Shown here in pieces: positions 1 to 8,026 of a stretch of DNA of 23,284 bases; position 1 is the stretch's first letter, and every line of letters starts with the position of its first letter. Position numbers and translations under genes: made by a program. Source of the stretch: a virus; UHGV virus genome UHGV-0204798; one strand, written 5' to 3'. Below the pieces are notes generated by a model that was given only the letters and a program-made list of their open reading frames with translations, was not told where the DNA came from and made no database searches.

Positions 1-64
1 CGCAAGGTGTTTTAACAAATCAAAAGGGGTTTTAATAACTGGCTCAAAGCTGAAAGCTTTCCGG

Positions 65-89
65 AACCCCCAGCCTAGCCGGGGGTTTT
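65..89 (+). terminator. Terminator-like GC hairpin (AACCCCC-N9-GGGGGTT) followed by TTTC
   Basis: Perfect 7-bp stem at 65-71/81-87 with a 9-nt loop; the T run forms the 3' side of the stem. A second 7-bp hairpin (CGGGTGC-ATA-GCACCCG) sits at 104-120. Oriented for plus-strand transcription entering from the left. Confidence 0.35.
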
Positions 90-787: not shown

Positions 788-1828
788 TTACATGTACTCC
801 CGAATTACCAGCACGCCATTTGCTCCGTGCCCGCCACGTCCTGACGTGTGTGAATAGCTATTATCGTATGCACCCCCGCCGCCGGAGCCAGAGCAAACTC
901 CAGGATTACCGATCAGTAGCCCAGCACGGCCGCCGCCACCCCAATAGCTCGATGCCCCATTGCCTGCTAATAGCGCCTGGCCCGCCTGTCCGTCTGAACC
1001 GTCTCCGCCTTGTTCAGTTTTATAACCGCCAGAGCCTGAGCCACCGCGCCCGCCAGCGGTATTTGTAGCGCCGCTCCATTGCCCACCCTGGCCGCCGAGC
1101 GCAATTAATGTCATGAACAAACTATTACCGCCATTATTTCCAGGCCCTGGCCCATTGGCACCACTACCACCGCTACCAATTGTCACTGTATAGGTCCCTG
1201 GCCCGGCATCGTTGTCTGTCGCATAAATAGTGGCAAAAACAGTACCTCCGGCTCCTCCGCCAGCCCCTGAAAATGTCTGATTTGCGTTCTCCGCGTTACA
1301 TCCACCGCCACCGCCGCCCGCCGCAGTCAGAATAACGTCAATTCGTTTTACGTCAGCTGGCCACGTATATAAACCCGACGATGAAAAAACGACAGTTTTG
1401 CTGTAACGCCCCGAGCCATCTCCCAAACCAAGGTATGAAAGAGCATCTTTCCACCCTGCACCATTGTTGTTAGGATCAAATAAATTTCCTTCTGTTGTAT
1501 TAATGAATATTCTCTCCCCATCGTCAGAGATGAGCATCGCCCCTGACGGATATCCAGAAATCTCCGAAGCAAACTCAGAATCAAAAGTGTTCAGCGCCCC
1601 TGTGCTCGACCATCTACCAAGAGCCGAAAGTTCGTATAAAATTTGGTTCATATCCTGGCCTTTTGGCGGCAAACCTCCAGCAGATTTCAGGATCATTGTT
1701 ATTGGAGGAAACCCCTGTTCATACGATGCTGAGTTATCACCTGCAGGGGTGGTTGGCAATATTGCCCCTCTCTGTCCATTAACTCCAAATGGCTTAGGTT
1801 GTTTTTTAGGTGAGTCAGAACGATTCAT
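788..1828 (-). CDS. Tail fibre protein with glycine-rich collagen-like repeats
   Basis: 346-aa ORF, ATG at 1826-1828 with AGGA about 9 nt upstream. Long Gly-rich tracts (GGGGGG, GSGGSGANGPGPGNNGG, GGRGGSGSGG). Located between baseplate genes and tfa. Confidence 0.6.
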   Translation of the reverse strand: MNRSDSPKKQPKPFGVNGQRGAILPTTPAGDNSASYEQGFPPITMILKSAGGLPPKGQDMNQILYELSALGRWSSTGALNTFDSEFASEISGYPSGAMLISDDGERIFINTTEGNLFDPNNNGAGWKDALSYLGLGDGSGRYSKTVVFSSSGLYTWPADVKRIDVILTAAGGGGGGCNAENANQTFSGAGGGAGGTVFATIYATDNDAGPGTYTVTIGSGGSGANGPGPGNNGGNSLFMTLIALGGQGGQWSGATNTAGGRGGSGSGGYKTEQGGDGSDGQAGQALLAGNGASSYWGGGGRAGLLIGNPGVCSGSGGGGAYDNSYSHTSGRGGHGANGVLVIREYM

Positions 1829-5923: not shown

Positions 5924-6735
5924 GTACTCGCCTTAACTATATTTTTTGCAATATCTGCCGCTTTTTTTGTTGCGCTGTTTGTAACTTCGAGTATTGGTTT
6001 AGACACCGTATCAAGAGCACTCTGAAATTCAGTCTTTATTGTGCCGGAGATTTTTCCAGTGATTTCGCCAACAGATGACTTCAGTGATGACCATGATTTA
6101 CTTAGCTCATCGACAGTAGATTCCCTGGCTCCGCCATTGGTTATTTGCGGATCAACTCCTACATCACCCTGTGACTTATTGTTATCCGTTGGCTTCTGTT
6201 CTGACTGAGATCCAGAGAGAATAACTTCCATTTGCTGAATGACCTCCTGAAAATCAAGATAAACCGTCAGAAGAGTCACCCCTTTTTGAGAGTTAACTTC
6301 GTAATAGTGGTCAACAAGGTCGAAACTCTCCAGAGTTTCCTTTGGCGTTTCAATATCGTATGTTTTTGCAGAGGACAGCATCGTTTTGATTGTGTTCAGC
6401 GTGCTGTTCTGGCTTGTGAATGTGAGATCGAAAATATTCGGGATATTGCCGGAAAAACCAGTAAGACCATTTACGATGATTGCGCATCTTACCCTGGCGG
6501 GTTCTTTAACTTTGTTGATGGACTGGTATTTCCCTTTCTCCACCGGAGCGTTTGTTATTTGCGCCCTGCCACTTGGCTGCACGGATGCCATACCACTGAA
6601 CTCAAGAGCAACCTCGCCAGTTTCCCTGTCACGAATCACATACTGGGGATGCAGAACGCTGTCGATAATCGAAAGCGGAGAGCCGCCACCGATAGCATTG
6701 AATATGTCTGCTGTGTTTAAATCGATTATGCCCAT
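5920..6735 (-). CDS. Tail structural protein, first gene downstream of the regulatory island
   Basis: 271-aa ORF with ATG at 6733-6735 and a GGAG Shine-Dalgarno 5 nt upstream. No enzymatic motif recognised. Confidence 0.45.
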   Translation of the reverse strand: MGIIDLNTADIFNAIGGGSPLSIIDSVLHPQYVIRDRETGEVALEFSGMASVQPSGRAQITNAPVEKGKYQSINKVKEPARVRCAIIVNGLTGFSGNIPNIFDLTFTSQNSTLNTIKTMLSSAKTYDIETPKETLESFDLVDHYYEVNSQKGVTLLTVYLDFQEVIQQMEVILSGSQSEQKPTDNNKSQGDVGVDPQITNGGARESTVDELSKSWSSLKSSVGEITGKISGTIKTEFQSALDTVSKPILEVTNSATKKAADIAKNIVKAST

Positions 6736-6750
6736 CTACTCTCCATTAAA

Positions 6751-6774
6751 CAAAAAACCCAGCCGAAGCTGGGT
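6751..6774 (-). terminator. Intrinsic terminator downstream of ant
   Basis: Hairpin ACCCAGC-CGAA-GCTGGGT (6757-6763 / 6768-6774) followed on the minus strand by a TTTTTTG run (plus 6751-6756 is CAAAAA). Sits about 20 nt after the ant stop and just upstream of the next gene's RBS. Confidence 0.6.
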
Positions 6775-6792
6775 CGTTGCGTTGGTTATCTG

Positions 6793-7719
6793 TCAGTAGT
6801 TATGTACTGAAGGAGGTAATTCTTTATTCTTAAGTCTCATCCATGCGGAAAGATTCGTTGGTCCGTCTGGCTCATTGATATCAACATCTCGTGTGTGGTT
6901 TATTAAAACGTCTCTCGCCATTCCGATAACATACGAGAATTCATGACCGTAGTCGTAGCATCTGCCGGAATAGTTCGATTGAATTTGTTTTAGCGCCGGA
7001 TACAGTTCGCGGAATAATGCCTGTGAACGGTTGGCATAATCCCATAACCATACAAGGCTGTTTGCTTCTTTTGCAGAAAGCTCGTTTGCTTTCTTCTCTT
7101 GTTTGCCGATGAACTCACCTTCAAGCGGAACTCGAGCTGCAAGTGACAGTGCTTCGGTAAACTGCTCCTCACTGATTTCTTTGTATGAACATCCAAAATG
7201 GGATTTCAGTGACGACCACATGGTAATCATCGCCTTCGCCTGTTTTTCTTTTGGCAGAGACTGACCGCGACTCATGACAAGTTGTTTAATGGCTTCCTGC
7301 TGTTCAGTGGTGATTTTGCCCGGCAACGCCTTTTTAGCTTTGCGTGGATTAACCACATGGCCTTTAGTCCAGTACTCATAGAGCACATCGTCACACTCTT
7401 CCTGATACTGGATTACCTTGTCGCGGATTTCAGGGCGGACTTTGTTAGGACTGATGGTTTGCAGCCAGCCAGCAAGTTTGCGAAGTGCCAAACAAATAAT
7501 CTCACGGCACTGTTCATCACCAGGAAGCTGCATTGTGATTTTCACAATGGAGGTTTTAAACCGTTGCTTTATTTTCGTAAACTGTGAAGCCCAATCCATA
7601 CCCATTCCCTCAACGATAGGTTTCATTGGGGTGTACGGTTCGCCGTTGTGATTGACAACATAAAGCTCTGCGCCGTGAAATGGCACGTTGATAGTAGATA
7701 CCGCGGTTGCTATACTCAT
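6793..7719 (-). CDS. ant: Phage antirepressor (Ant-like)
   Basis: Track ORF 6793-7773 starts with GTG; the likely start is ATG at 7717-7719 (MSIATAVSTINVPFHGAELYVV...) with AAGGA 9 nt upstream. N-terminal NVPFxGxELYVV...HNGEPYTPMKPIVEGMGMDW block recalled as typical of enterobacterial phage antirepressors. Lies directly downstream of an Arc-like gene and divergent from an Mnt-like gene. Confidence 0.65.
   Translation of the reverse strand: MSIATAVSTINVPFHGAELYVVNHNGEPYTPMKPIVEGMGMDWASQFTKIKQRFKTSIVKITMQLPGDEQCREIICLALRKLAGWLQTISPNKVRPEIRDKVIQYQEECDDVLYEYWTKGHVVNPRKAKKALPGKITTEQQEAIKQLVMSRGQSLPKEKQAKAMITMWSSLKSHFGCSYKEISEEQFTEALSLAARVPLEGEFIGKQEKKANELSAKEANSLVWLWDYANRSQALFRELYPALKQIQSNYSGRCYDYGHEFSYVIGMARDVLINHTRDVDINEPDGPTNLSAWMRLKNKELPPSVHNY
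7688..7716 (+). promoter_or_regulatory. Candidate sigma70 promoter firing antisense to ant (Psar-like)
   Basis: TTGATA (7688-7693), 17-nt spacer, TATACT (7711-7716). The -10 element overlaps the ant start codon on the opposite strand. Confidence 0.4.
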
Positions 7720-7722
7720 TTC

Positions 7723-7793
7723 GTTAGTTCCTTGGAAGTTACTGACATAGAAGCCCGATTTGTGTTCGCGCACTGTCGGGCTTCGCTATTTTT
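7723..7793 (+). ncRNA. Candidate ~70-nt antisense RNA covering the ant RBS (sar-like)
   Basis: Predicted start about 7 nt after the -10 element. Ends at a 9-bp hairpin GAAGCCCGA/TCGGGCTTC (7750-7758 / 7776-7784, 17-nt loop) followed by GCTATTTTT (T run 7789-7793). Complementary to the ant Shine-Dalgarno (plus 7729-7733) and the arc-ant intergenic region. Confidence 0.4.
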
Positions 7794-7959
7794 ATGTCCT
7801 AGCATTCTTCTCTCCAATCAGTCCGTACACTTTTCTCAATTGATAAACAAGTTCCGTGTTGAACTGTCGACACTCTTTTTCTCCATTTCTTTCAATCGCC
7901 TTCCTTACATCCTCTGGGAAACGAACCTTGCGTTGATACATGTCTTTTGCTTTTTCCAT
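7792..7959 (-). CDS. arc: Arc-like ribbon-helix-helix DNA-binding protein (55 aa), not in the ORF track
   Basis: Codon-by-codon reading of the minus strand from ATG (plus 7957-7959) to TAA (plus 7792-7794) gives MEKAKDMYQRKVRFPEDVRKAIERNGEKECRQFNTELVYQLRKVYGLIGEKNART. AAGGAG Shine-Dalgarno 5 nt upstream. Beta-strand (KVRFP) then two helices, the RHH pattern of P22 Arc. Sits immediately upstream of ant. Confidence 0.6.
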   Translation of the reverse strand: MEKAKDMYQRKVRFPEDVRKAIERNGEKECRQFNTELVYQLRKVYGLIGEKNART

Positions 7960-7976
7960 CTCCACTCCTTAAATAG

Positions 7977-7989
7977 CCTCACTGTGGGG
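7977..7989. promoter_or_regulatory. Operator-like imperfect palindrome CCTCACtGTGGGG
   Basis: 11 of 13 positions symmetric. Lies in the 5' leader of the leftward arc-ant transcript, between the -10 element and the arc Shine-Dalgarno. Confidence 0.45.
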
Positions 7990-7997
7990 TAGTCAAA

Positions 7998-8026
7998 ATT
8001 GTCACACCGTGCGTCATTGAAGTCAA
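7998..8026 (-). promoter_or_regulatory. Candidate leftward promoter for arc-ant (Pant-like)
   Basis: Minus strand reads TTGACT (plus 8021-8026), 17-nt spacer, TGn-GACAAT (plus 7998-8003). Its -35 overlaps the -35 of the divergent rightward promoter. Confidence 0.45.

Follow-up and report, generated by a model that had tools for sequence, protein, structure and literature searches.

What, if anything, is encoded opposite the ribosome-binding site of an antirepressor gene, on the strand that the gene itself does not use? The question is raised by a locus in UHGV virus genome UHGV-0204798, of which we analyzed a stretch of 23,284 nucleotides (hereafter "the window"; plus and minus refer to the strand as presented and its complement). 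Our answer is that positions 7723-7793 of the plus strand very probably encode a cis-antisense RNA of ~70 nt, a diverged homologue of the sar RNA of phage P22, that blocks translation of ant.

According to the passages of PMC12197685, PMC7968456, and PMC2629481 that treat it, P22 sar is an RNA of 68/69 nt that pairs with the mRNA of ant and represses synthesis of the antirepressor (PMC2629481 cites Liao et al. 1987, Wu et al. 1987, and Schaefer & McClure 1997), and this matches what the initial annotation of the window had given for it, namely an RNA of 68-69 nt that negatively controls ant. The pairing is described as interfering with translation initiation (sections on sar in PMC12197685, PMC7968456, and PMC11016777). 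Where PMC12197685 and PMC13397905 deal with the subject, a ~68-69-nt transcript repressing Ant synthesis post-transcriptionally is known only for P22.

The locus lies in a small gene module, which consists of the following parts:

6756-6775, minus strand: terminator-like hairpin and T run right past the ant stop, matching the annotated ant terminator of P22
6793-7719, minus strand: ant, the antirepressor gene (308 aa; P22_AR_N and P22_AR_C domains, homologous to P22 Ant), the target gene
7792-7959, minus strand: arc-like gene (55 aa, ribbon-helix-helix), a RefSeq CDS in the E. coli copy described below
7966-8081, no strand assigned: divergent control region with Pant-like and Pmnt-like sites and two 13-mers
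8082-8456, plus strand: mnt-like gene (124 aa), its N-terminus a ribbon-helix-helix of the Arc/Mnt type
8444-8467, plus strand: terminator-like hairpin at the mnt end, with an A run on one side and a T run on the other

The ant gene begins with an ATG at 7719-7717, 9 nt behind the Shine-Dalgarno AAGGA (7733-7729), and position 7719 is also the start used by RefSeq in a 98.8% identical copy from E. coli Res13-Lact-PEA14-20. Its product carries the Pfam domains P22_AR_N (7e-45) and P22_AR_C (3e-29) and is 57% identical to P22 Ant by BLASTP (E=2e-122). The arc-like product scores 17.9 bits against Pfam Arc, slightly below the cut-off of 20.4, and shares 30% identity with P22 Arc over 40 aa (E=4e-5); the mnt-like product matches Pfam Arc at 3e-7 and is 33% identical to the N-terminus of P22 Mnt (E=2e-10). 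On the minus strand, the spacer between arc and ant measures 72 nt. The control region between arc and mnt holds a Pant-like site on the minus strand (TTGACT-17-GACAAT, 8026 to 7998) and a Pmnt-like site on the plus strand (TTGAAG-17-CATAAT, 8017 to 8045). Two 13-mers lie 50 bp apart in the same region, CCTCACTGTGGGG (7977-7989) and the palindrome CCCCACCGTGGGG (8027-8039); both contain the core CCACCGTGG, also present at the annotated Mnt operator of P22, and both are likely, if putative, operator sites.

The module has the P22 immI gene set (mnt-like, arc-like, and ant) in P22 order, with flanking terminators and divergent promoters placed as in P22. It belongs to the immunity I type of P22 by its mnt, arc, and ant genes, its predicted divergent Pmnt/Pant control, and its insertion in a late operon. 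That operon, which fills the rest of the window on the minus strand, is of a contractile-tail prophage (terminase, portal, major head, sheath, lytic tail protein, baseplate hub and wedge, and tail fibre genes), unlike the short-tailed P22 type, and the module has the lytic tail protein gene on one side and the baseplate genes on the other, all of them minus-strand genes. It is an "ant moron" as PMC2629481 uses the term, here in a phage that is not P22-like. In the E. coli copy (locus L083, 9001-9865; NZ_CP062871.1), the mnt-arc-sar-ant module lies between the lambda-type tail genes L and K (C40 peptidase) of a lambdoid, siphovirus-type prophage, and its RefSeq annotation contains no RNA gene. 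Because an A run and a T run flank the hairpin at 8444-8467, it could terminate transcription both ways; it might likewise reduce read-through from the late operon into the module, including transcripts from the lytic tail protein gene.

Within and beside the start of ant, the plus strand carries the candidate RNA gene proper:

7688-7716, plus strand: Psar-like promoter, inside ant codons 2-11 and directed away from ant
7688-7693, plus strand: -35 element TTGATA, followed by a 17-nt spacer
7708-7709, plus strand: TG extension
7711-7716, plus strand: -10 element TATACT
7723-7793, plus strand: predicted sar-like antisense RNA of 69-71 nt (from model matches, fold, and the Rfam sar match)
7723-7746, plus strand: stem-loop 1, in which GUUAGU pairs with ACUGAC
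7750-7793, plus strand: stem-loop 2, the predicted intrinsic terminator, a hairpin followed by GCUA and then UUUUU (7789-7793)

The initial annotation had pointed to a near-consensus plus-strand promoter, TTGATA-17-TATACT, in the first codons of ant and facing away from it, and this is present as described. It agrees with the sigma-70-type consensus at 10/12 positions, with the TG in addition, and on the opposite strand its -10 reads as ant codons 2-3. On both strands of the 23-kb window, it is the only site to reach at least 10/12. It is important to remember that the promoter match by itself is not beyond chance, because dinucleotide shuffles of the window yield 5.2 such sites (sd 2.3), or 0.41 if the TG is also demanded. 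The significance of the unit comes from the coincidence of its features and from homology; no lone motif suffices. As a side observation, one site against 5.2 in the shuffles suggests that strong spurious promoters are depleted in the late operon.

The 10-mer TTGCTATACT at the -10 is identical in the window, in the annotated Psar of P22, and in phage TL-2011b. All 50 distinct homologous variants have a TAnnnT hexamer 6-7 nt ahead of a +1 G (TACAAT, TACACT, or TATACT in 45 of them), and 27 have the TG two bases upstream; the TAnnnT is kept with either antirepressor N-terminal domain downstream, P22_AR_N or Bro-N. Part of this conservation could reflect coding constraint and shared ancestry: the -35 TTGATA lies within the conserved Ant peptide TINVPFHG, and the -10 sits in codons that are homologous across loci.

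The predicted RNA would begin at G7723, 7 nt past the -10 as in P22, and end within the U run, at 7791-7793. The predicted fold of these 71 nt has two stem-loops and an energy of -28.3 kcal/mol (z = -5.06), and 0/200 shuffles of 7723-7793 fold as stably. The anti-Shine-Dalgarno UUCCUU (7728-7733) lies within the upper part of stem-loop 1. The outer stem of stem-loop 2 has 10 pairs, GAAGCCCGAU (7750-7759) with GUCGGGCUUC (7775-7784), and an inner helix adds 4 more (7762-7765 with 7770-7773); a simple terminator scan missed this hairpin because its loop exceeds 8 nt. Both the 9-bp hairpin and the T run ending near 7793 that had been noticed earlier were found, the 9 bp being the Watson-Crick part of the 10 outer pairs. 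Between the stem and the U run lie 4 nt, a spacing that is less than ideal for intrinsic termination; the offset in P22 sar is similar (CAAC-UUU). The UUUUU run overlaps the arc stop codon TAA (7794-7792).

Positions 7723-7793 span the whole arc-ant spacer save 7720-7722, the bases adjoining the ant start codon, and include the complement of the ant Shine-Dalgarno. The ~70-nt RNA that the initial annotation had envisaged, complementary to that Shine-Dalgarno and to the spacer, therefore has its counterpart in a 71-nt unit that covers both. As expected of a sar, the candidate is antisense to the arc-ant spacer and the ant ribosome-binding site and has its own predicted promoter inside ant. Two other assignments were tried and rejected: the plus-strand open reading frame at 7648-7992 (114 aa, GTG start) was dismissed as an antisense shadow of arc and ant, and the hairpin was ruled out as the mnt terminator, mnt being downstream of it on the same strand.

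Is the element related to sar, or does it simply look like it? The P22 record (NC_002371) lists sar as a misc_RNA antisense in the arc-ant spacer, with its promoter in the first ant codons and its terminator hairpin ending at the arc stop. The candidate aligns base for base with this gene, and TL-2011b aligns too, over the whole unit; common to all three, besides the 10-mer at the -10, are a 5'-terminal GTTrGTT, TTACTGAC, and two stem arms, GAAGCCC and GGGCTTC. Megablast and blastn comparisons with phage records brought up nothing close to the whole window, and TL-2011b alone across the sar region; with 77.6% identity across 406 nt, it is the nearest relative among the phages.

The likeness to P22 sar extends to the layout. 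Each element is flanked by mnt, arc, and ant, lies antisense in the arc-ant spacer with its 3' end over the arc stop, has its promoter in the first ant codons with 7 nt from the identical -10 region to a +1 G, and consists of two stem-loops, the second as a (predicted) terminator. With 69-71 nt here against 68/69 nt in P22, and the same arrangement in the P22 annotation, the size and geometry first suggested for the window RNA hold up. There are differences as well. The -35 of the window is near consensus (TTGATA vs GTGTTA), the inner stem and loop of its terminator differ in sequence and include an internal loop, and its U run is a clean UUUUU. Its Ant has one N-terminal codon fewer (MSIA vs MNSIA), and three extra bases (TTC) stand between the ant start codon and +1, because of which the predicted window RNA ends 3 nt short of the start codon, whereas P22 sar abuts it.

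Homology was also assessed with a covariance model (R1) of 42 distinct sar-like sequences, drawn from 80 IMG/VR loci encoding Arc relatives together with TL-2011b; the window and P22 were left out. R1 matches the window at 7720-7793 on the plus strand (52.5 bits, E=1.1e-10) and, in 13 kb of P22, exactly the annotated sar (6022-6091 of that sequence, L001, minus strand; 38.9 bits, E=1.7e-7). The next-best matches have E values of at least 0.2, among them the minus-strand mirror of the hairpin (E=0.2). A second model, R2, gives the window element 49.6 bits. On the evidence of R1 and of the direct alignment, the element is homologous to the experimentally defined sar of P22, and the sar-like identity that the initial annotation had proposed is supported by the P22-order gene set, the alignment with sar, the leave-out model, and a full-length Rfam match.

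Please note that this last match is weak. A scan of the whole window at Rfam gathering level returned no sar, the sole match being STnc490 at the window edge. The Rfam sar model (RF00262) aligns over its full length (1-68) with 7723-7787 on the plus strand, beginning at the predicted start, at 15.6 bits (E=1.7 in a 301-nt search), below its threshold of 43, which is the operational cut-off of one narrow model and not a biological definition. In a permissive scan, chance matches to symR and a CRISPR direct repeat are as weak, and the 15.6 bits by themselves prove nothing; because they fall short of 43, we call the window element a diverged homologue and not an Rfam-recognised member. The same model exceeds the threshold in P22 (97.8 bits), in three IMG/VR loci (L058, L021, and L017; 55.7-61.3 bits), and in TL-2011b (44.8 bits), each time at the coordinates of the R1 match, and stays below it in 13/18 loci scanned as well as in the window. 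Judged by these scores, the window copy is the diverged end of a continuum that includes the curated sar RNAs. The STnc490 match (an Hfq-binding sRNA; window 1-87, minus strand, 85.9 bits, E=7e-16) is cut by the window edge and sits just past the tail-fibre assembly gene.

How general is the arrangement? Each of the 82 loci searched contains exactly one match, antisense and abutting the arc stop, a count that includes the 42 sequences used to build the model. Outside the model, the element is carried by 6/6 independent enterobacterial genomes found with the Arc protein as query (Rouxiella, Raoultella, Pluralibacter, Kluyvera, Citrobacter, and Pantoea; E from 5e-9 to 9e-19). An exact 62-mer search of species-representative genomes gave no match. 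Every one of the arc-encoding loci examined (82 + 6) has a sar-like element, and position, strand, promoter, and structure are conserved across ~90 loci. Loss of the promoter and hairpin from homologous islands was named at the outset as what would speak against the proposal; both are retained, with a match in every locus (82/82) and TAnnnT in every variant (50/50).

The antirepressor downstream alternates between the P22_AR_N and Bro-N N-terminal families, and the shared part extends only ~four codons into the gene (M-N/K/T-S/I-V/I); the promoter therefore travels with arc and sar, not with the antirepressor. Two IMG/VR loci (L007 and L011, ~1673-1800, minus strand), and others from the same collection, combine a window-like sar body, 91% identical, with an antirepressor of the Bro-N plus P22_AR_C type; the recombination joint lies ~four codons into the gene, and the Psar -10 thus stays with arc and sar. 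The CUS-3 record has "boundary sequences" annotated at the ant start. At another IMG/VR locus (L012, ~1748-1897), arc is followed by a gene of just 49 aa that encodes a prematurely terminated Ant N-terminus and may be an ant copy in decay; the sar-like element there is intact.

A covariation check of the hairpin in homologous islands had been proposed with the initial annotation, and compensatory changes are found in both stem-loops. Alignment A3 comprises 48 distinct sequences fitted to model R2, for which the structure was supplied by hand. Paired cells amount to 87.8% in A3 vs 79.1% in shuffles, and the covariation score is 0.325 vs 0.174 in shuffles and at most 0.137 in slid registers. Changes on both sides occur in 15/22 pairs, against a shuffle mean of 8.9, and 0/500 shuffles reach 15, although these shuffle counts are not probabilities, because A3 was fitted to the structure and its sequences are related. 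Stem-loop 1 contributes 4/5 pairs to the A3 count and stem-loop 2 contributes 9/14.

An alignment-free cross-check, in which the arms are justified from the conserved stem ends, gives the same picture. Counted in this way, the outer five pairs of stem-loop 1 are 99.5% paired among 44 distinct sequences, with changes on both sides at positions 4 and 5; the terminator is 93% paired, with six standard pair types at stem position 8. An RNAalifold consensus on a MAFFT alignment retains only 8 pairs, owing to gaps that MAFFT sets wrongly in the variable inner stem.

How would such an RNA act? We propose that it is transcribed from the extended -10 promoter embedded in the first ant codons, folds into two stem-loops, and stops at its own intrinsic terminator overlapping the arc stop. 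Its full complementarity to the arc-ant spacer would let it pair with the arc-ant mRNA across the ant Shine-Dalgarno and block ribosome binding. Antirepressor synthesis would then be kept low even when ant is transcribed, whether Pant is active before Arc and Mnt come into play or late-operon transcription reads through. The module points the same way as the late genes, so that transcription running on from them could make ant mRNA that is beyond Arc/Mnt control; control of such read-through is a role discussed for sar in P22-like phages (in the relevant part of PMC12111858). That the RNA is made and represses ant translation is what the P22 literature leads us to expect, and transcription, termination, and repression in the window prophage would follow by the same analogy.

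Could the hairpin instead belong to the minus-strand arc-ant mRNA, as a structural, stabilising, or processing element, with the promoter-like hexamers a by-product of Ant codons and no antisense RNA at all? One such promoter-like site is within chance for the window, the -35 is inside a conserved Ant peptide, and a perfect hairpin forms on either strand, as the minus-strand mirror at E=0.2 illustrates. The variation within the helices, however, distinguishes the strands: read on the sar strand, G.U cells number 132, against 10 A.C cells, the latter being those that would be G.U on the ant mRNA strand, and it follows that selection has maintained pairing in the sar strand, not in the mRNA of ant. 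The T run, moreover, is present past the hairpin on the plus strand only; the minus strand reads UAUGUCAG there, and for this reason the hairpin would be a one-way terminator. The fold, the covariation in both helices, and the strand asymmetry all fit the sar plan of two stem-loops with a (predicted) terminator. The spacing from the -10 to the +1 G is kept across two unrelated antirepressor N-domains, and the homologous element of P22 is an annotated, published RNA gene. We regard an mRNA hairpin without an antisense RNA as very unlikely. It is also conceivable that the RNA is made and acts mainly through convergent transcription (promoter interference or polymerase collision) or through duplex-triggered mRNA cleavage. 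The Psar-like and Pant-like promoters are convergent and only ~300 bp apart, Psar could be strong enough with its near-consensus -35, and the predicted RNA stops short of the ant start codon; yet the literature on P22 sar, in the sections of PMC12197685 and PMC7968456 concerned with it, describes base pairing against translation initiation, and the anti-Shine-Dalgarno UUCC is the best-conserved part of stem-loop 1 (alignment A2 shows no variation at T10 or C12). As the main mode of action, such interference strikes us as improbable; it and pairing are not mutually exclusive, and the one may add to the other.

An inactive relic, that is, a defective prophage or immI module in which the sar-like sequence is kept by recent descent only, is extremely improbable in our view. 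Near-identical (98.8%) copies exist in E. coli and in IMG/VR contigs, because of which the window copy carries little independent evolutionary signal, and the related locus with a truncated 49-aa ant could be read in the same sense. In the window, however, the three reading frames, the promoter, both hairpins, and the U run are all intact, and the surrounding late operon reads as complete; a dead relic is unlikely precisely because every part is intact. We thus return to a cis-antisense RNA directed against ant translation, for which the observation in the initial annotation is confirmed and its interpretation supported.

The sar-like RNAs are also modular. Three types of stem-loop 1 and 14 types of terminator inner part occur in 16 combinations, and the P22 terminator type is found with both main types of stem-loop 1. 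The halves of the RNA reassort and diversify with their pairing preserved. A tentative and rather unlikely extension of this result is that arc-sar forms a portable RNA-plus-repressor cassette that reaches four codons into the downstream antirepressor gene, and that the types are trans specificity classes. Such a cassette would travel between short-, long-, and contractile-tailed prophages, with P22_AR_N or Bro-N antirepressors. If this were true, the sar of a resident prophage would act in trans to silence ant mRNA from a second phage, incoming or co-resident, only where the two are of the same type; immI immunity would then have an RNA-based layer comparable to the incompatibility groups of plasmids.

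For those who annotate phage genomes, the practical message is that this RNA gene is one that standard pipelines miss, both RefSeq (at the E. coli copy) and the Rfam sar threshold. Antirepressor control of the sar type is not limited to P22-like podoviruses; the sar-like RNA goes with arc into lambdoid and contractile-tail prophages in eight or more genera of Enterobacterales. Where prophage induction is studied in E. coli or Salmonella, the prediction is that Ant output from such modules would be set post-transcriptionally as well as by Arc and Mnt. This is a known type of regulator in a new setting and does not reveal a new mechanism; it is worth annotating, and a broader Rfam seed is worthwhile.

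Other antisense RNAs offer useful comparisons. Lambda OOP and IS10 RNA-OUT (see also a table in PMC12197685) are likewise constitutive RNAs of ~70 nt with a stem-loop and a terminator, fully complementary to a 5' or intercistronic part of their target, and post-transcriptional in action. They differ in being unrelated in sequence and in targeting cII and transposase, respectively, with OOP acting at the cII 3' end.

C4 and isrK have no sequence or structural similarity to the window element, and neither is matched in the window at Rfam thresholds. C4 of P1/P7 (RF01695) is a small phage RNA that also silences an antirepressor gene by pairing near a ribosome-binding site. It is processed from the transcript of its own target and acts upstream of icd/ant, and is not a convergent cis-antisense RNA. 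TL-2011b has isrK (76.7 bits) and C4 antisense RNA (77.7 bits) matches just upstream of a Bro-N protein gene (L002, 3025-3210, plus strand) as well as arc-sar-ant, and this one phage therefore carries two different RNA-controlled antirepressor systems.
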